64,000 nt of DNA from a virus. Its lineage: Duplodnaviria; Caudoviricetes. The translations under genes and the position numbers were made by a program. A model generated the notes under the pieces. The model saw nothing but the letters and a program-made list of their open reading frames with translations, was not told the DNA's origin and did no database searches. The DNA lies in the IMG/VR virus record IMGVR_UViG_3300025018_000145, positions 7,908 to 71,907 of that record. One strand, 5' to 3'. This document shows positions 2,290-11,103 of the stretch, piece after piece; the first letter of the stretch is position 1, and each line of letters opens with the position of its first letter.

Positions 2290-2902
2290 CTAGCCCCTCC
2301 ATTGTTCGGATGAGATATTGTATACGCATAACATCGATCGCTACGTCATGCCGTGGATCATGATGAATAAACTCAGATTCGTTTACGTTCGGCGGAAAGA
2401 ATCGATCATCGATATTATGCCCAAATGTTAGTCCAAGAATGAAACTACGAACGTCACGAATAGCACGAAAATGAATCGGTTCGGATTGATCCGTTGCATG
2501 AATTAATGACGTGAGCAGTGGTGGATCGAACGTATTGCCGCGTGTAAATACATACTTACAATCATATGCACGAATTTCATCGTTAAAAATCGTGAATAGT
2601 TGTTTAATCGACACATCGTCTGACGATCTCTTTAACTGCTTTCGCGCAGTTGGTGGTTGTTCTTGCCACCAATCTAGTACACGCTGCTCAATCTTTCGAC
2701 CATATACATTTACTTGTTCTAATATATCGAACTTATGAAACGAAGAAACATTAACTAATTCATTGAAATTATATGGACTATCAGACGTAAATCTATCTGA
2801 TTCGACTTTAACTGTCGCGAGATTTACAATCGGCGCAGACTCGATATTTGTACCAAGCGTTTCAAAATCAAAGAATAACATTTTCATAATAATATCACTC
2901 AA
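2282..2902 (-). CDS. dexA: DEDDh 3'-5' exonuclease (DexA-like)
   Basis: FFDFETLG (ExoI), RGNTFD (ExoII) and HDPRHDVAID (ExoIII). Confidence 0.8.
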   Translation of the reverse strand: MSDIIMKMLFFDFETLGTNIESAPIVNLATVKVESDRFTSDSPYNFNELVNVSSFHKFDILEQVNVYGRKIEQRVLDWWQEQPPTARKQLKRSSDDVSIKQLFTIFNDEIRAYDCKYVFTRGNTFDPPLLTSLIHATDQSEPIHFRAIRDVRSFILGLTFGHNIDDRFFPPNVNESEFIHHDPRHDVAIDVMRIQYLIRTMEGLDV

Positions 2903-3833
2903 ATGGACAGTTGGTCATAATTTCAACGAAGCACGCTGTTAGATTAATCTCAGCATCAACAGAGAAAGCTGCTTTATATTGATAATCAGCAAGAATAAGC
3001 ACTAACTGCGGTATCGACTGTTTTTTTAGCTTGGGCGTAAGTTGATCGTAAATAGTTCTAAAGATGCTAGTTGAATCAATGTCAGCATTCAGCGATACCC
3101 AAGTTCGAACATTAGTAAAATTCTTTTCAATCAAAGCCGCAATTAAATCATCAAGATTACTCTTACTCTCCGATAAAAGAATACCGTTATCAATTACACC
3201 ACATGTTCCATATCGCTGTAACTCATTGAGAATGCGACGATTATCTGGAAAATACTTTCGCACTAAATGAGCAACCGTTTTCTTATCATATTCAATATTT
3301 TCTTTATCAAGAATTAGTTGAACGTGGTGAAAAAATGAAACTGCGAGCTCAACTCTCTCATCTTTGCTGAACATAAAATCGATTACACTGCATCGTGAAT
3401 GTAATGGTTCGATAATACGATTCTTGAAATTACATGTAAGAATGAAACCACAGTTATGCGAGTATTCCTCCATGAAATTGCGTAGAGCTGGTTGTGTCGA
3501 ATTTCCATTTAGATAATCTGCTTCATCAAGAATAACGTACTTACGCCCACCACTTAACGATACCGATGATGCAAATTGCTGAATGTCATTACGCAATGTA
3601 TCGATATTACCCCTCATCGAACCGTTGATGATAATGTAATCACACCCAAGTTCCTCGAGCATCGCACGAGCAATTGTCGTTTTACCAACACCAGGCCCGC
3701 CTGATAGAATTAAATTTGGTACGTTCTTTTGATCGACGAACTGTTGAAATACATCTTTGAGACGAGACGGTAGAACCGTCTCCTTTACAGTCTTCGGTCT
3801 GTACTTTTCAACGAAAAGAAACTCTTCACGCAT
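2895..3833 (-). CDS. gp44: clamp loader large subunit gp44 (AAA+)
   Basis: EKYRP, Walker A GGPGVGKT, Walker B ILDEAD and SRC motifs. Start refined to MREEF. Confidence 0.97.
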   Translation of the reverse strand: MREEFLFVEKYRPKTVKETVLPSRLKDVFQQFVDQKNVPNLILSGGPGVGKTTIARAMLEELGCDYIIINGSMRGNIDTLRNDIQQFASSVSLSGGRKYVILDEADYLNGNSTQPALRNFMEEYSHNCGFILTCNFKNRIIEPLHSRCSVIDFMFSKDERVELAVSFFHHVQLILDKENIEYDKKTVAHLVRKYFPDNRRILNELQRYGTCGVIDNGILLSESKSNLDDLIAALIEKNFTNVRTWVSLNADIDSTSIFRTIYDQLTPKLKKQSIPQLVLILADYQYKAAFSVDAEINLTACFVEIMTNCPFE

Positions 3834-3851
3834 AATATAAAACTCCCTCAA

Positions 3852-4529
3852 TTAACTGAATGTAGACTTCGACTCAACGCTAACCCAATATGTAATTGCT
3901 GATGATTCAAATCGACAAATACCGGCAGACGAGATCGATACACTGTAGTCATTTGGTACGATCTTAAGATGGTCAGTTCGAATAATTGCTGTGAAAGGTT
4001 TGCTATCTGTTTCACCAACAACGATATCGTAATCGTTTGAACTGGGATTTGATGTATCTGTTCCACGAAGAACAAGATTGCCGTCCTCAACAGTGATCAC
4101 CAACTCAGGCAACGACATAACACCAAGAGCCTTCATTATATCCTGATATTGATTTGTCTTTAAGTTAAACGACACGTCAATACTTGGCATATTCAAATCA
4201 TGATCAGGCGGTGTAACGAAAGTTGATGTATCTGCATACACATACTTCACTTTACGTCGAGCATCGCCATGAATAGTCATCGATGATGCACCGATTTCGT
4301 AACGCGGGTTCTTCATCAGAGAAACTACACCTAGAAAACGATGCAGTTCATAAATTGCAAAGTCAGATGGGATCGTTTCATCCAGTGTTGCTTTTGCTAG
4401 CACTGCTTTATTTGGCGCCATTGTGCGAAGAATATTACCTTGCTTAAACGCAAGTGACGGATTAATCGTTGAAAAATTCTTCAATACTGCGATCGTGTTT
4501 TCATTCATGTTCATATATACATTCTCCAT
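3852..4529 (-). CDS. gp45: sliding clamp gp45
   Basis: TIAVLKNFSTINPS...FAIYELHRFLGV; directly upstream of gp44. Confidence 0.95.
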   Translation of the reverse strand: MENVYMNMNENTIAVLKNFSTINPSLAFKQGNILRTMAPNKAVLAKATLDETIPSDFAIYELHRFLGVVSLMKNPRYEIGASSMTIHGDARRKVKYVYADTSTFVTPPDHDLNMPSIDVSFNLKTNQYQDIMKALGVMSLPELVITVEDGNLVLRGTDTSNPSSNDYDIVVGETDSKPFTAIIRTDHLKIVPNDYSVSISSAGICRFESSAITYWVSVESKSTFS

Positions 4530-4535
4530 TATATT

Positions 4536-5510
4536 TTATTTACGTTTCCTGCCAAGCTTCTTTGTGTCTGCTGTTGCCGATGCTCCAACCGATGCTAAGG
4601 CCGCAAGCGATCCACCAAAAATATACGAACCTACATGCTTGAGCTGCATCCATGGGCATAACCACACCTTCATACCCATCTTTTGTACATTATAACAAAA
4701 CATATAGTCTTCTGACAAATACCGGTTTGAATATGCGGAAGTTAAACCATTCTTCTTATCGCGTAAAAATTCAATGATATCGTCGTGTGTAGCGTTAGGC
4801 GTCTGCTTTACGAATGCTTCAACCTCAGCAACCATATTCTGAGATTTATCGTCGATGATAGCGTCAAAATACGCCATGATTTCGCGTGAACCATCGAAAT
4901 TCTCGGTGCGAACATGGTCTGGCTTATATAACATCTGTGGGAAGTGTTTATTGTATGCCTCAAAAACCTTTCGTTGAATCAACATAAACCCAGTACCAGA
5001 TTCCATTACCTCAACTGGTTGATTAAGCGGAATTGTTGATAATCCCTTCTTTGGGTTGAATACATAATCGCCAACGAAGTTTTCGAGAATATTTGGATCT
5101 TTATCTGCTACACCTTTATCAACAGCTTGCTTAATCTTTTCCCATGAGATAGTCTTCTTTGGATATGGCCCGCATAGAACATTATAATCTTCATTCATTG
5201 AAGATAGTCCTAACAACGAAATAACGTCATGCGCGTCAAAGCCAATATCAGAGTCAATAAACATTAGATGAGTACAATCAGATCTCATAAACTCATCAGC
5301 ACAATAGTTGCGCGCGCGTGTAACCAAAGACTCGTTGAATAGAAAATAGAACTGCATCTTAATACCATAACGTACGCAGAGATTCGTTAGATCTGAAAGC
5401 GATCTAGCAAACATTCCAGCACATTGCCCGCCGTACATCGGTACTGCCAAAAATAATTTCTGTTGCTTTAATACTTCAACTGGTATTTTTGTTTCCATGT
5501 TATACTCCAT
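4536..5510 (-). CDS. GT-A fold (GT2-like) glycosyltransferase-like protein
   Basis: LFLAVPMYGG, ESLVTRARN, DxD motif MFIDSDI, GTGFMLI, SEDYMFC and LKHVG. Confidence 0.65.
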   Translation of the reverse strand: MEYNMETKIPVEVLKQQKLFLAVPMYGGQCAGMFARSLSDLTNLCVRYGIKMQFYFLFNESLVTRARNYCADEFMRSDCTHLMFIDSDIGFDAHDVISLLGLSSMNEDYNVLCGPYPKKTISWEKIKQAVDKGVADKDPNILENFVGDYVFNPKKGLSTIPLNQPVEVMESGTGFMLIQRKVFEAYNKHFPQMLYKPDHVRTENFDGSREIMAYFDAIIDDKSQNMVAEVEAFVKQTPNATHDDIIEFLRDKKNGLTSAYSNRYLSEDYMFCYNVQKMGMKVWLCPWMQLKHVGSYIFGGSLAALASVGASATADTKKLGRKRK

Positions 5511-5516
5511 TGTATT

Positions 5517-6725
5517 CTATTGAATGAAAGATGTCAAATCGTGTCGATCTGTTTCTACGTGTTCAATTGTTTTCTTAAAATTATTCTGTTTAACATACGA
5601 TGAGCCAGAATCAAGTAATTGTCCACGAATAAACAATTCGATCTCAGTACACATATCGCGTGCCGTGCATACTGGTACGTTCTGTGCAATATGATTAATA
5701 CAACTGCGCCCGCCTAGTAACTCAAAATCATCAGGAAAGCCCATCATATATAATGCTTCACGTACAGTTAAAGAGCGATCATATTCTGGGTGAATAGTGT
5801 CGGCCATATTTCGACCGATCACGGCATTCATTACCTCATTAAAAACATGTGTTGAACCATCCCATACACCAAGTCCCTGATCATACTTTTTAATCGCATG
5901 AGCTGCATATTTGGCACCGCGAGTGTGGTCGATCGTTTCAAACCAATCAAGAGCTTCGTCTAAACTAAAATGCTTAATAACATATTGGAGTGTAGTGATA
6001 ATCTTTGATTCTTTTAGTAATTCACGCGGATCACGATTTGTTTTATATTTGATGAACTGATAGTAATGCTCGTTACCGATTTCGTTATTAATGATGATAT
6101 CATGATGCTTAGCATTCGCATTCACATTCTTAAGATAATCATGAAAATTCAAACGTGATCGATCATACCAATTCATAATAGGTGCAGTCTTACTCTTCCA
6201 AGCAATAGCAAAACAACGCTGACGATTCTGTGGAATACCATGGTACATTGTCGATGTTTTGTATAATGTTAGACTGTAACCACGAGCCTTAGCAATTTCA
6301 TATAAGCGCTGTGCAACGGCCTGTCCTTTATTCGTATATAGCGCAGGTGCATTCTCGACAATAACAGCTTTTGCATTAAAGCGATCAATACCTTCTTCGA
6401 AAACACGATACATCCACTCATTCTTTTGACAACCGGCACCTTTCACCGCGGCGGTCTTCCCCGTGTTTAACTGAGATAAAGCAGCGCATGGTGGAGTACC
6501 AACAATGACGTCGATTTCATTACTATAATCTGGGTCTTTATCAAGATGTATATATGGTACATTCAGATTGTGAATTTCATTAATATAATTCACATAATGG
6601 CTATCGTTCTTCGTAAAATCCGAATATGATATGATTGCTGTTGGTTTTGAATTGAACGCAGCGGCGGCCCCAAGAGGAAATCCACCAATAAGTGGAATGA
6701 GAGGTGCCCATTTTAACTGATTCAT
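5517..6725 (-). CDS. C5-cytosine DNA methyltransferase-fold protein with atypical SAM-binding motif I
   Basis: Motif IV GTPPC, motif VI VENAP, motif VIII PQNRQR, motif IX LTVREA..MGFPDDF and motif X AQNVP. Motif I reads LIPLIGG instead of LFxGxGG. Confidence 0.85.
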   Translation of the reverse strand: MNQLKWAPLIPLIGGFPLGAAAAFNSKPTAIISYSDFTKNDSHYVNYINEIHNLNVPYIHLDKDPDYSNEIDVIVGTPPCAALSQLNTGKTAAVKGAGCQKNEWMYRVFEEGIDRFNAKAVIVENAPALYTNKGQAVAQRLYEIAKARGYSLTLYKTSTMYHGIPQNRQRCFAIAWKSKTAPIMNWYDRSRLNFHDYLKNVNANAKHHDIIINNEIGNEHYYQFIKYKTNRDPRELLKESKIITTLQYVIKHFSLDEALDWFETIDHTRGAKYAAHAIKKYDQGLGVWDGSTHVFNEVMNAVIGRNMADTIHPEYDRSLTVREALYMMGFPDDFELLGGRSCINHIAQNVPVCTARDMCTEIELFIRGQLLDSGSSYVKQNNFKKTIEHVETDRHDLTSFIQ

Positions 6726-6743
6726 TATATATCCTATATTTCA

Positions 6744-7997
6744 CTAAGAAAAGAAAGACTCGAGTGTTGTTATTTCACTCTTTCTGTAATTATTTATACA
6801 CGGCTCTGAATAGGTACTATCGATAGAAGTCATAATCGATTTATTAATAAATGAGCCATCATATAGATCATCTGTTAGATACTTATTTGATAAGTAACGA
6901 ATATGATGAAGATATAGTACGTCATCATTGTAGATTGACGCAATACGATCATGCAGCTGTTCTGGTGTCGACGGTCTATAAAACGAATCGAGGTTTGTAT
7001 GATTTTGTGTGTCATATGTTGGATGAAGAAATGGAATGACACCAGCCTGAATCATCTCGATATACTTCGACGTTACCCACCCCGGCGCAATCGGAATGAT
7101 GAATGTTGAACGAACATTTCCAAATCTTCTTTGAATTTCACTTACATGAACCGAACCACGAAAACGCGCATCGCTGTTTATTATATTCTCATTCCATTGG
7201 CCGTAGATATCAATATTCTCATCGTGCTTAAGAACCCATTCGTTCAGTATATTATAACGTGATGGTTTGCCTTCATTGAGAGCGATCATTGCGTGAACAT
7301 TACGATCTGCAACCGATGTAGTTGGTTTATTATAATCCAAACAGAACATCTTTTCAACACCAGAGTATGTAGACTTTACATAATCCGTTATTAAATCTTG
7401 ATCATCAAATGATTTGAAATATTTCTTAGCATATTCAAAATCAAACTGCCCAATCGACACATTCGGGCAGCGAGTAATGTCACGGGATTGATTAAGCTTA
7501 TAGCGAGGATCGTTTATGATTTCGATGAACGGTATATTCGTACGATTAATCCATTCAATCATAGGCGTCGAATATAATTTGGTCATATCGATGACTGCAG
7601 CAGTGAGATCACGATTATTAACCTGCATAGTACGATTTGGTATCGTGGCGGACCCAATTTGCCCAATCATAAAGATTCCATAATCAATATGAATATCGTT
7701 GATTTCAAAATAACGAATCGCGTGTAGATAAAAATTCTCGCCCAATTCCGGTGATCGCGGAATTTTTACGCCGTCCCAAATATCAATGACATTGTCATAT
7801 GGGAATAGCGAATTCTTATCAACATCGGATAATCGACTATAATCGGATCGCCCAATAATATAAAATTTCTTATCAGGATTTCTATTCGCGAGCGCACGCA
7901 GAACACATGATGGTTCATTATCACCACCAATAGGTGAATAGTTTTTAGTTGAAAATTTAATTGATTTTCCTATCTTCGCAAACACAAAATTTTTCAT
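6744..7997 (-). CDS. GT-B DNA glycosyltransferase, T4 beta-glucosyltransferase-like
   Basis: The C-terminal half (TSKYIEMIQAGVIPFLHPTYDTQ...EQLHDRIASIYNDDVL) aligns by eye with the T4 BGT C-terminus (TLRVWETMASDAVMLIDEEFDTK...ELIDRVNELKHSDVL). Lies in an operon with the gp42 homologue. Confidence 0.7.
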   Translation of the reverse strand: MKNFVFAKIGKSIKFSTKNYSPIGGDNEPSCVLRALANRNPDKKFYIIGRSDYSRLSDVDKNSLFPYDNVIDIWDGVKIPRSPELGENFYLHAIRYFEINDIHIDYGIFMIGQIGSATIPNRTMQVNNRDLTAAVIDMTKLYSTPMIEWINRTNIPFIEIINDPRYKLNQSRDITRCPNVSIGQFDFEYAKKYFKSFDDQDLITDYVKSTYSGVEKMFCLDYNKPTTSVADRNVHAMIALNEGKPSRYNILNEWVLKHDENIDIYGQWNENIINSDARFRGSVHVSEIQRRFGNVRSTFIIPIAPGWVTSKYIEMIQAGVIPFLHPTYDTQNHTNLDSFYRPSTPEQLHDRIASIYNDDVLYLHHIRYLSNKYLTDDLYDGSFINKSIMTSIDSTYSEPCINNYRKSEITTLESFFS

Positions 7998-8446
7998 TAT
8001 GAATTCCTTATTCTCTCGCGTAAATCGCTCGACGAAAATGAATGTCGTCTCCTATTATAATGAATTGGGCACATCCCAATACCAGTATGATCCGTTCCTT
8101 TATATTCTTCACCTACAATACGTATGTCGGGATTAATTGTTAAAATCATATCAACCAAATCCTTCTCAGTTTCAAAAGGAATGATTTCATCAACATATCG
8201 GCATGACGACAACTGCACGTATCTCTCAAATGACGACTGAATTGGTTTATTCTTCTTACCCGGGCGATCAACTGTTGGATCAATCAACAAACCAACTATC
8301 AGATAATCACATAGTGTTTTTGCTTCCTGTAGCATGACGATGTGACCTGAATGAAAAAGATCAAATGTGCTACACGTAAAGCCAACCTTAACTTCGGTTA
8401 TATCCATGCCGAGTTTTTTAGCAATTGATTTCTTATCAAGAAACAT
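7997..8446 (-). CDS. cytidylyltransferase (TagD/ethanolamine-phosphate CT-like, HxGH family)
   Basis: GFTCSTFDLFHSGH, CRYVDEII and SFSSSDLRERI. Start refined to MFLDKK, overlapping the upstream stop. Confidence 0.9.
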   Translation of the reverse strand: MFLDKKSIAKKLGMDITEVKVGFTCSTFDLFHSGHIVMLQEAKTLCDYLIVGLLIDPTVDRPGKKNKPIQSSFERYVQLSSCRYVDEIIPFETEKDLVDMILTINPDIRIVGEEYKGTDHTGIGMCPIHYNRRRHSFSSSDLRERIRNS

Positions 8447-9449
8447 TACGTATACACTCAACGATGAATTGTTTATTTGGGTGATACTTATAAACTCGAA
8501 GCAATTCCGCGCGAACAAAGGCATTTAACTGATTCATATCCAATTCATTATATTGTATCATATATCCACGTATTCTGTTAATCGTTTTTAACCTATAACG
8601 CTGTAGATGTAACGAAGCAATAAATTTTGCGATATCCAGTTCAGTACACCCAAATACGTCTGGTATTGGATCAATTAAAAACAGTCTCATATCTGATGTG
8701 AATAGCATATTCATGACACTAAAATCGCCATGCGCGAATGATGGTGTTAGGTTATACTTTAATAAGTCAGTATATATCGATTCAAACTCGATGTTCCGTG
8801 ATAATTTATAATGATCATGAATTCGATTTATGTATGTATCATATGTAGCAGTATTCATCGGCATCAATTGCTTCATATGTACTAGAGATTCCTGAATCAA
8901 ACCCAATGCAATAGGTTCACGTATATACAATGTATGTGTGTTATGATGTATGTAATCCATTACGATTGTATCACCAATCACGCTATTAACATTAGGAACA
9001 TTTAACCAGTCGCGACTATATTCGTACCACGAACGTACGATATGCGCCCGAGGGTCTTGTTTATATACGAGAGTTCCGTCTGTATAGATATCAGACCCAG
9101 ACAAACCACCTTCAAGTTCATTAAAAGTAGTTTCGATAAACTCGTCTGGTCTTAGCGCTTTATCATCAACATAATATGTCGCAAGTGGTTTTTCAAACGA
9201 AAGTGTATGATATAGAACATCATGTTTCTTAAGCCACGATTCAATACTATCTCGATATTTAAGAGATGCTTCTTCACGTGTCTTACATGATATCGACCCG
9301 CGCGCAGTATAGATATCGATTTGCCACTTCCCACTATTGTACATTTCATTGATTTTGGTGATTAGTTGCGTGTTTGGTTCGGCATTATCCCAATCACGAT
9401 CGCGCGTAAATGCAATGGTGTCATCGAAATCAAATATCACTCGTCTCAT
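8436..9449 (-). CDS. HAD phosphatase (EcbF/BcbF-like) fused to APH/choline-kinase-like domain
   Basis: N-terminal DFDDT, YTAR, KP and YVDDKA HAD motifs. C-terminal GGLSGS loop, HGDFSVMN (Brenner motif) and LIDP. Confidence 0.85.
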   Translation of the reverse strand: MRRVIFDFDDTIAFTRDRDWDNAEPNTQLITKINEMYNSGKWQIDIYTARGSISCKTREEASLKYRDSIESWLKKHDVLYHTLSFEKPLATYYVDDKALRPDEFIETTFNELEGGLSGSDIYTDGTLVYKQDPRAHIVRSWYEYSRDWLNVPNVNSVIGDTIVMDYIHHNTHTLYIREPIALGLIQESLVHMKQLMPMNTATYDTYINRIHDHYKLSRNIEFESIYTDLLKYNLTPSFAHGDFSVMNMLFTSDMRLFLIDPIPDVFGCTELDIAKFIASLHLQRYRLKTINRIRGYMIQYNELDMNQLNAFVRAELLRVYKYHPNKQFIVECIRNVS

Positions 9450-9450
9450 A

Positions 9451-10218
9451 TTATTTAATACCATATTGACTATTTGGGTATAGTTGATTATATTCTTTTT
9501 TGGTGATTGTTGTCAACCCAGTTTTGCGATAATGGTCAACTAGATAGAATTGCGAAGGATAAACATGAAGATTCATAACTTGCCAGTGAATATCACCAAC
9601 TAACGATTCAGGCATCTCTGGAATTGATATACCATGATATATCAATTCCGCAGCTAATCGTTTTTGTACATGTAATTGCCAAGCATAATCATTTCGATAG
9701 CCAGCCCAACAATCATTGCTTCTCATTTGAACGACACAATCCAATCTACCGTCATTAATATAATATGAAACAGCATTTGTGCAAATGAAATCATTCTTGC
9801 CATTTTCATAATACTCAATCCAAATGCTCGGGCGAGTATAAATCATTTGTGCTCTACGCGAACTCGGATTATTAACGAGTTCGCGAACTACCTGATTGAA
9901 CTGACAATATGAACGATCACCGTAAATCAAATAACCATAATTTGAGTTTATTTCGCCGTGTTCATTTGCAGTGTTAATCCACGCCTTCGGTATTATCTCC
10001 ACAGGAAGATCATAAATATTCGTAGATTGCATATTGTACCATGCAATCTCGCTATCTATATATGCGCGATTTACTTCACCGAAAATATGATCGTCGTCTG
10101 CTAAAAACGAAGCGGCGAGAATCACTAAGTTAGTATCTGCAGGTGAACCGTTCTTCTCAAAGTCATTTAATAATGTAACAAATCGTCCGCGAATATCTTG
10201 TACATTTAAATATGTCAT
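9451..10218 (-). CDS. gp42: dCMP hydroxymethylase (T4 gp42 homologue, thymidylate synthase fold)
   Basis: GEINSNYG, SRRAQMIYTRPS, catalytic DFICTN, MRSND..GYRNDYAWQ (cytosine-specifying Asp) and LHVY..FYLVDH are near-identical to T4 gp42 motifs. Confidence 0.93.
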   Translation of the reverse strand: MTYLNVQDIRGRFVTLLNDFEKNGSPADTNLVILAASFLADDDHIFGEVNRAYIDSEIAWYNMQSTNIYDLPVEIIPKAWINTANEHGEINSNYGYLIYGDRSYCQFNQVVRELVNNPSSRRAQMIYTRPSIWIEYYENGKNDFICTNAVSYYINDGRLDCVVQMRSNDCWAGYRNDYAWQLHVQKRLAAELIYHGISIPEMPESLVGDIHWQVMNLHVYPSQFYLVDHYRKTGLTTITKKEYNQLYPNSQYGIK

Positions 10219-10310: not shown

Positions 10311-10673
10311 TCAGCGAGTGGATGTAGATTTCAAATCTCGTTCGCAGTTGAAGATATCACGAGATGAATCCTGGCCATCCATTTCACCACGTGAATATGC
10401 AACGAAGAAAGACAGATAATTGATTGCATCTTTCGCGGAATCTTCAATCGATTCGAAGTTCGGTGAATCGCATCCATTTTTAACTGCATCCAATAAAGAA
10501 TAGATACGAATCAATTTCTGATATGCCATGTCGATAATTGTAGAACAACCACGCGGATAGTGATCAGCCTGTTTAATACGTGACTGACTATTTTGATAAT
10601 CTGCGCCTTTCTTTTCCTGAATTTCGGCGCATTCCTTTAAAACTCTAATTGAACATTTATCAGTATTCATCAT
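10311..10673 (-). CDS. nucleotide-modification-associated all-alpha protein (DUF1599/Nmad1-like, MazG-related)
   Basis: KKGADY...EDSAKDAINY pattern; located within the modification cluster. Confidence 0.55.
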   Translation of the reverse strand: MMNTDKCSIRVLKECAEIQEKKGADYQNSQSRIKQADHYPRGCSTIIDMAYQKLIRIYSLLDAVKNGCDSPNFESIEDSAKDAINYLSFFVAYSRGEMDGQDSSRDIFNCERDLKSTSTR

Positions 10674-11103
10674 TATACTCTGAACGAATCATTATGTTTG
10701 GTAATATATCACCGTGATTATCCCTATGGTCGGGACCAATCCAACCGCTTGGCTTAATTAAATCTGGCAGACCTAATGCATTTGGTCGTGTTGATTTAAT
10801 ACCAACCTCTTTACTTAAATTTGCGGCCAATACTTGCTTCCACGCTGTATCTGGATTAACATTAAACACGTCGAGAGTACCAATTGCGATAACACACAAG
10901 TCAATTAATCCATCAATAAGTTCTTCGACGTCGTTATCTCTATATGCATTCATAGTTTCGTTGTATTCTTCTGTGAGAAAATTCATACGAAATCTAAGAA
11001 ACGCATCCATCTTTTTACGGTCGTTACGATTCTTATTGACCCAATCATGAACACCATATTTATGATGCATTCGATTTATGTCTTCGCACCAGCAATTTGT
11101 CAT
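10660..11103 (-). CDS. MazG/PRA-PH-like NTP pyrophosphatase (probable dCTPase/dUTPase)
   Basis: EEYNE...ELIDGLIDL acidic motifs, plus ANLSK and DLIKP..W. Confidence 0.8.
   Translation of the reverse strand: MTNCWCEDINRMHHKYGVHDWVNKNRNDRKKMDAFLRFRMNFLTEEYNETMNAYRDNDVEELIDGLIDLCVIAIGTLDVFNVNPDTAWKQVLAANLSKEVGIKSTRPNALGLPDLIKPSGWIGPDHRDNHGDILPNIMIRSEYNDEY

Follow-up and report, generated by a model that had tools for sequence, protein, structure and literature searches.

Within a 64,000-nucleotide window of phage DNA (positions 7,908 to 71,907 of IMG/VR virus record IMGVR_UViG_3300025018_000145, part of a 71.9-kilobase (kb) contig of a T4-like phage, ~40% complete), the gene at 5517..6725 (minus strand, as are all features of the window given below) encodes a 402-residue protein with the fold and catalytic motifs of a cytosine C5 DNA methyltransferase and a cofactor side that departs from every canonical C5-methylase. 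We propose that the protein belongs to a family of C5-methyltransferase-fold enzymes, almost only viral, that would act on the phage's own newly made DNA, and that it probably performs a DNA modification step not yet described. In its more specific form, the proposal is of an enzyme that acts on 5-hydroxymethylcytosine (5hmC) after replication, without canonical use of S-adenosylmethionine (SAM), and that may be tethered to the sliding clamp; we hold this tentatively, at a little below an even chance.

An earlier model-made prediction, drawn from the letters of the window, had placed the gene correctly, as an ATG-to-stop open reading frame (ORF) at 5517..6725. PF00145 matches residues 13–355 of the product (E = 8.8e-24, 85 bits against a cut-off of 22), and an AlphaFold2 (AF2) model built with 29 homologues has a mean predicted local distance difference test (pLDDT) score of 90.2. 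The best Foldseek matches to this model are M.HaeIII, DNMT1, MET1 and M.HhaI (probability 1.00 to 1dct, 2uz4 and DNMT1), with the phage enzyme CmoX (8yf3) among its structural neighbors at rank 34. The PC, EN and QxRxR motifs, described in the original prediction as retained, are all in place: PPC (residues 78–80) within motif IV, PPCAAL (residues 78–83, 6477..6494), where the canonical Gln has become Ala; VENAP of motif VI (residues 123–127, 6345..6359); and QNRQR of motif VIII (residues 166–170, 6216..6230). Motif IX, REALYMMGFPDDF, follows at residues 322–334. Counted over 137 family representatives at ≤50% identity (132 for the motif I columns), the catalytic C80 is present in 137/137, and E124, N125, A126, P127, Q166, R168 and R170 are each at least 90% conserved. 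Judged by these residues, the machinery for base flipping and covalent catalysis (Cys80, Glu124, Arg168, Arg170) is intact. Between motifs VIII and IX lies a target-recognition region of 120 residues, the least conserved part of the protein (entropy 2.91).

The cofactor side is altered at several landmarks. Motif I reads LIPLIGG (residues 9–15, 6681..6701), and a global profile–profile alignment of the N-terminal part with canonical phage methylases pairs I10 with the canonical Phe and L12 with the first Gly, the two losses that had been claimed for it. Throughout the family, FxGxGG is replaced by x-P-L-x-G-G, with I, V or Q at the canonical Phe position (P11 in 125/132, L12 in 129/132, G14 in 132/132 and G15 in 131/132 representatives), as against FxGxG in 92/93 control phage methylases. 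For motif II, the suggestion that no clear acidic residue is present holds at the level of the family, in which residues 35 and 36 are variable (these mark the end of strand 2 and the start of helix B in the AF2 model, the site expected for the motif II Glu), but not for the protein itself, which has D36; the conserved acid is instead D/E41 (130/137). This residue forms with N40 (125/137) a pair in helix B (residues 35–51 in the model), one helical turn past the end of strand 2, within KNDSHY (residues 39–44, 6594..6611). A motif III-like D/N/E occupies position 62 in 117/137 representatives. Two further substitutions had escaped the original prediction: in motif IV, PCQ becomes PC(A/S/G), position 81 being A in 100, S in 29 and G in 7 of the 137; and in motif X, GN(A/S)V becomes (A/S/G)QNV (Q348 in 133/137, N349 in 130/137, with K or R at position 348 in only 4/137). 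The latter reads IAQNVP in our protein (residues 346–351, 5673..5690), which HMMER pairs with the "IGNAVP" of DNMT1, so that the canonical Asn is replaced by Gln. A tryptophan, W104, stands at the Leu100 position. Local hhalign comparison with canonical methylases (99.9% probability) covers residues 61–380 only, hhalign does not place motif II, and most PDB methylases align to the protein only from about position 60, in agreement with the earlier view that this side of the enzyme is unlike that of canonical members.

What does not survive is the description of the pocket as eroded. P11, L12, G14, G15, N40, D/E41, Q348 and N349 rank with the catalytic residues among the best-conserved columns of the family, and an unbroken frame together with variant motifs as well kept as the catalytic ones led us to reject erosion or pseudogenisation. 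Because the variant residues are as conserved as those of catalysis, the cofactor pocket is best read as rebuilt and under strong purifying selection, not decayed, a sign that it may hold either a new ligand or the C5 substituent itself. In M.HhaI, Gln82, Tyr254 and Asn304 surround the transferable group beside C5; the Q82A substitution lowers methyl transfer about 16-fold, and a shorter residue in place of Asn304 opens the site to bulky groups (PMC3526304). In CmoX, a phage DNA cytosine C5-carboxymethyltransferase that uses carboxy-SAM, the adenosine is held by Phe25, Glu47, Phe48 and Asp69, and Arg350, at the Asn304 position, selects carboxy-SAM (PMC12783734). Since the positions changed in our family are those that hold SAM or frame the methyl group in these two enzymes, the replacements at the equivalents of Phe, Glu, Gln82 and Asn304 would argue against canonical SAM-dependent methyl transfer.

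The genome in which this enzyme works appears to be one whose cytosines already carry a C5 group. The gene at 9451..10218 encodes a deoxycytidine monophosphate (dCMP) hydroxymethylase orthologous to T4 gp42 (E = 9e-60 to T4 gp42 structures, PDB 1b5e; 50% identity to T4 gp42). Because it keeps both the catalytic Cys (FICTN) and the cytosine-specifying Asp (RNDYAW, the position marked by the D179N mutant entry 6l18), cytosine C5 would be filled at the nucleotide level in this phage, as had originally been proposed. A deoxyuridine monophosphate enzyme or plain thymidylate synthase, which would leave C5 free, is ruled out by the Asp and by the identity to T4 gp42. An RB69-type 5-hydroxy-dCMP synthase is unlikely here, given an E value of 9e-60 for T4 gp42 versus 1.8e-6 for PDB 9iqu/9iqc (entries that we infer to be of the hydroxylase type).

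This tie to hydroxymethylcytosine synthesis extends far beyond the genome for which it was first noted. We sought thymidylate-synthase homologues within 10 kb of family genes at fully flanked loci (at least 7 kb on both sides) and found one at 12/12 loci of the close T4-like set, 12/12 of a second T4-like set (35–45% identity), 19/43 of a third, mixed set and 3/3 of the initial distant loci, 46/70 in total. The 24 exceptions form one lineage, in which 4/4 tested contigs carry such a gene 55–60 kb away. An Asp/Cys/Asp signature at the positions of E. coli ThyA L143, C146 and N177, that of the dCMP hydroxymethylase type, is present in 108/112 of the homologues, and it discriminates because canonical ThyA proteins on the same contigs have Leu/Cys/Asn. 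Around canonical FxGxG phage methylases, an Asp/Cys/Asp homologue was found at 0/80 control loci (1.26 Mb). Fisher's test of 46/70 against 0/29 fully flanked canonical controls gives p = 1e-10, a value that overstates the support, as the loci are not phylogenetically independent. Nonetheless, several T4-like lineages show the association, as do phages that encode a Pol III alpha polymerase (loci L007–L011), Pseudoalteromonas phage vB_Psh_XG4, S-TIM5-like cyanophages and Bacillus phage G, the last with a remote relative.

Other frequent neighbors are GT-B transferases (either the family of the adjacent 417-residue protein described below or AGT-like PF11440 proteins), nucleoside diphosphate (NDP)-sugar genes, dCMP deaminase and a thymidylate-kinase-like kinase. 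One lineage has both this kinase and the thymidylate-synthase homologue close to the methylase-like gene but no adjacent glycosyltransferase, and for this reason the link of the gene seems to be to the modified base itself.

Three individual loci deserve mention beside this pattern. In cyanophage S-TIM61 (L002, 4757–5593, minus strand), and also in S-TIM5, a protein annotated as "ThyA" lies 2.4 kb from a family relative and reads Cys/Cys/Asp, with Cys at the L143 and Asp at the N177 position; going by these residues, it is probably a dCMP-specific enzyme, not a thymidylate synthase. Bacillus phage G gp301 (L248; also L258) is a remote, non-canonical relative with the motifs FIFGGS, CPCSGLSQ and IAQGVP, and phage G carries an Asp/Cys/Asp thymidylate-synthase homologue about 13 kb away, plus a canonical ThyA. 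At L176 (4906–6081 and 12825–13439), the methylase-like gene stands beside a thymidylate-kinase-like gene and a thymidylate-synthase homologue, with a radical-SAM, lysine-aminomutase-like gene about 4 kb upstream.

The family is large and essentially viral. There are 433 matches at E <1e-10 among 90%-identity clusters and 423 clusters at 50% identity with E <1e-30, and three scans of IMG/VR returned 389, at least 597 and 166 matching stretches, together more than 1,100 loci. Prokaryotes yielded one match in 185,579 species (one genome per species), on a short contig of a metagenome-assembled genome (MAG) that has phage gene order. No restriction enzyme was seen beside a family gene in that scan, and a restriction–modification methylase is ruled out by the single phage-like match. 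Literature searches found no paper describing the family. One cultured carrier exists in Pseudoalteromonas phage vB_Psh_XG4, whose relative has 47% identity and the same gene neighborhood; S-TIM5-like cyanophages also carry relatives. A metagenomic member of 598 residues (P0175) ends in a C-terminal CXXC zinc finger (PF02008, E = 6.6e-07), a domain that reads unmodified CpG.

A candidate clue to where the enzyme works is its C-terminal tail, LTSFIQ (5520..5537), a putative sliding-clamp-binding motif similar to the C-terminal peptides with which T4-type replication and late-transcription proteins bind the clamp. Tails of this LxxF(F/I) type end 3/78 ORFs of the contig: the methylase-like protein, the adjacent 417-residue protein (TLESFFS, 6747–6764) and an 82-residue ORF just upstream of the window (contig 7608–7856). 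The tail is kept in 158/163 homologues of the two T4-like sets (79/83 and 79/80, for example as LEEFFA or LDAFMV), and the homologues of the Pol III alpha phages are without it. Such a tail suggests, by resemblance, action on nascent DNA behind the fork.

Taken together in the reading that we favor, the substrate would be 5hmC, or its glycosylated form, in phage DNA rather than plain cytosine, and the rebuilt pocket at the former SAM site would hold the C5 substituent or a non-SAM co-substrate; a sugar would be a suitable occupant, given the Asn, Asp, Gln and aromatic residues there. Cys80 would attack C6, the oxygen substituent would be eliminated to give a 5-methylene intermediate, and another nucleophile would be captured at the 5-methylene carbon to yield a 5-CH2-X cytosine, the LxxF(F/I) tail keeping the enzyme bound to gp45, behind the fork. 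This scheme would mirror the second half of the gp42 reaction together with the coupling of thiols to 5hmC by M.SssI and M.HhaI in vitro, without SAM, a precedent invoked in the original prediction and confirmed in the literature (PMC7176277, and Liutkeviciute et al., cited there). That the family represents the first natural SAM-free use of the C5-methyltransferase covalent mechanism, putting another nucleophile in place of the hydroxyl or glycosyl-oxy group of 5hmC in DNA, or altering the C5 substituent in some other way, we regard as possible, if on the unlikely side.

Several points weigh against the 5hmC reading. We found no candidate nucleophile or donor pathway specific to the methylase-like gene, its neighbors being explained by NDP-sugar synthesis and glycosyl transfer. 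The GG pair, the aromatic residue at position 34, F37, N40–D/E41 and D/N/E62 could still bind an adenosine cofactor, and whether the pocket is filled or open is judged from sequence alone. The thymidylate-synthase homologues of distant lineages could make 5-hydroxy-dCMP, not 5-hydroxymethyl-dCMP (PMC13326640), and the non-independence of the loci tempers the association on which the reading leans.

The main rival is a C5 methylase that does depend on SAM, bound at an unusual site, and that backs up the hydroxymethylcytosine pathway by methylating residual cytosines or host DNA; we consider this a serious though rather doubtful alternative. Such a back-up role would also account for the link to gp42-type genes; the protein has the full PF00145 fold with all catalytic residues, and the retention of the GG pair, the N–D/E pair and the D/N/E with which strand 3 ends makes an adenosine-containing cofactor possible, while Dnmt3 enzymes tolerate FxGxA instead of FxGxG. 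Set against this, the equivalents of Phe, the first Gly, the motif II Glu, Gln82 and Asn304 are all replaced, and consistently so, where Q82A alone is enough to cut M.HhaI methylation 16-fold (PMC3526304). Nor would a plain methylase have reason to be confined to hydroxymethylcytosine phages, as the family is to judge from its near-absence from bacteria and from the lack of any Asp/Cys/Asp homologue at the control loci around canonical methylases.

We think it improbable that the enzyme is a DNA-level hydroxymethylase that patches gaps, converting residual C to 5hmC with a non-SAM one-carbon donor (a formaldehyde equivalent or methylene-tetrahydrofolate), a reaction with a parallel in the addition of formaldehyde to cytosine by C5-methylases without SAM, giving 5hmC (Liutkeviciute et al. 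2009, as cited in PMC7176277). A pocket that is rebuilt yet conserved, with an Asn–Asp pair, would fit this activity, as would the lineages whose tightest link is to thymidylate-synthase and nucleotide-kinase genes with no glycosyltransferase nearby. The small residue in place of Gln82, however, suggests room for a bulkier C5 group, not hydrogen; free formaldehyde is scarce in cells, and we know of no methyltransferase-fold enzyme that binds folate. The removal or editing of a group (by a site-specific dehydroxymethylase taking 5hmC to C, or a deaminase), or action on a target other than phage DNA (tRNA, as for Dnmt2, or host DNA), is very improbable: SAM-free C5-methylases do carry out the reverse removal of aldehydes and deamination in vitro, and a target-recognition region is present, but that region is the least conserved of the protein, nothing ties the gene to tRNA, the clamp-type tail, which the neighboring transferase-like protein shares, speaks for nascent phage DNA as the target, and stripping a protective group seems counter-productive.

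The gene under study sits in a co-oriented minus-strand block that runs from the gp44 clamp loader (2895–3851) through the gp45 sliding clamp (3852..4529; PF09116, E = 1.3e-15), a GT-A-like protein of 324 residues (4536..5510; phrog_1574, E = 1.9e-62, with a weak glycosyltransferase PHROG match) and the C5-methyltransferase-fold gene to the 417-residue protein (6744..7997), a cytidylyltransferase-like nucleotidyltransferase (7997..8524; PF01467, E = 3.1e-15), a HAD phosphatase fusion (8436..9464), the gp42 orthologue and two small genes. The 417-residue protein, a putative GT-B DNA glycosyltransferase by its apparent fold, has no Pfam match; its L001 orthologue shows a weak match to Glyco_trans_1_2, and genes of this family adjoin the methylase-like gene in 80 loci of the A1 set and 41 of the A3 set. 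A single 571-residue ORF joining the C-terminal part of this family to a methylase-like protein (L089, 1078–2793) occurs on the MAG contig of the sole prokaryote match; seen once and possibly a frameshift, it was not used as evidence.

In the HAD fusion, the N-terminal domain matches PDB 9iqw (E = 1e-13) and 1xpj, and the C-terminal part, which we read as a putative kinase, had no match by any tool used. In the RB69/DLP3 NDP-arabinose route, the sugar-5-phosphate phosphatase has been given this same HAD fold class (PMC13326640), and in relatives a PF00483 nucleotidyltransferase of about 500–560 residues replaces the small PF01467 enzyme; the sugar donor may therefore resemble NDP-arabinose. 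The two small genes (10311..11103; phrog_671, phrog_18404) encode candidate nucleotide pyrophosphatases, possibly acting on dCTP: the 147-residue protein (10660–11103), with PF01503, DR2231-like and MazG-type matches, is the only one of the pair with a supported pyrophosphatase fold, and the 120-residue protein (10311–10673) matches only phrog_1485 (unknown function) and phrog_18404 (hydrolase). At the place expected for gp62, the window has an Rv2179c-like 3'-5' exonuclease gene (PF16473; 2282–2902), which in relatives lies between the methylase-like and GT-A-like genes. A megablast search against phage genomes gave no match.

If 5hmC is indeed acted on without SAM, the family would bring into natural DNA modification a new type of reaction, so far a laboratory curiosity of C5-methylases, and would imply that abundant phages, apparently marine T4-like ones and others, carry a hypermodified cytosine that is widespread and as yet undescribed; enzymes that rewrite 5hmC at base resolution are, besides, sought for epigenome sequencing. 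Should it prove to be a SAM enzyme instead, the "invariant" FxGxG, PCQ and GN motifs would be shown to be all replaceable. The existence of a cultured carrier, vB_Psh_XG4, makes the question directly testable.

Among the closest known systems are the T4 hydroxymethylcytosine and RB69/DLP3 arabinosyl-5-hydroxycytosine pathways, which likewise combine a gp42-type enzyme, a MazG-like pyrophosphatase, a HAD phosphatase, a nucleotidyltransferase and glycosyltransferase-like genes in one block by gp45/gp44. As far as we know, the T-even phages and RB69/DLP3 have no C5-methylase-fold gene in that block. A published table of the pathway genes lists none (PMC13326640). Modules that pair a methylase with a TET (5mYOX) enzyme also set a phage-specific C5-methylase clade inside 5hmC and glycosylation clusters (PMC8256090; bioRxiv 2023.12.21.572611), but there the methylase makes 5-methylcytosine for TET to oxidize, whereas here gp42 supplies 5hmC at the nucleotide level. 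A TET partner is unlikely: Tet_JBP (PF12851) had no match on the incomplete contig, in a search that lacked a positive control (it matched no control genome either), and none is present among the annotated gene clusters around 245 loci.

To our knowledge, no natural enzyme performs SAM-free thiol coupling or the other "atypical" C5-methylase reactions. The engineered M.HhaI and M.SssI variants of the Q82A/N304A type share with the family a small residue at the Gln82 position, natural in our case (PMC3526304, PMC7176277); they differ as laboratory constructs, made to couple thiols to 5hmC or to move bulky groups, in which Asn304 is shortened to Ala where here it is lengthened to Gln. CmoX resembles our protein in being a phage C5-methylase homologue whose cofactor was altered through substitution at the Asn304 position, and its product serves as a handle for hypermodification. 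Unlike the proposed enzyme, it acts on plain cytosine, and it has SPPC with Arg at the Asn304 position where our protein has TPPC with Gln348 and has lost both the Phe and the Glu. We rejected an identity with CmoX, its defining residues being absent and CmoA (TIGR00740) having no match on the 72-kb contig (about 40% complete).

With canonical C5-methylases (M.HhaI, M.HaeIII; PF00145) the family shares the fold, the PC cysteine, the ENx glutamate, QxRxR, motif IX and a variable region between motifs VIII and IX, and differs in xPLxGG, PC(A/S/G), xQNV, a Trp at the Leu100 position and the lack of a conserved Glu at the end of strand 2; it is, moreover, confined to viruses, never lies next to a restriction enzyme and is linked with genes of the dCMP hydroxymethylase type. 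Its early steps would thus be expected to resemble those of a C5-methylase, but the change of three defining cofactor features suggests that it is not an ordinary member of that family.

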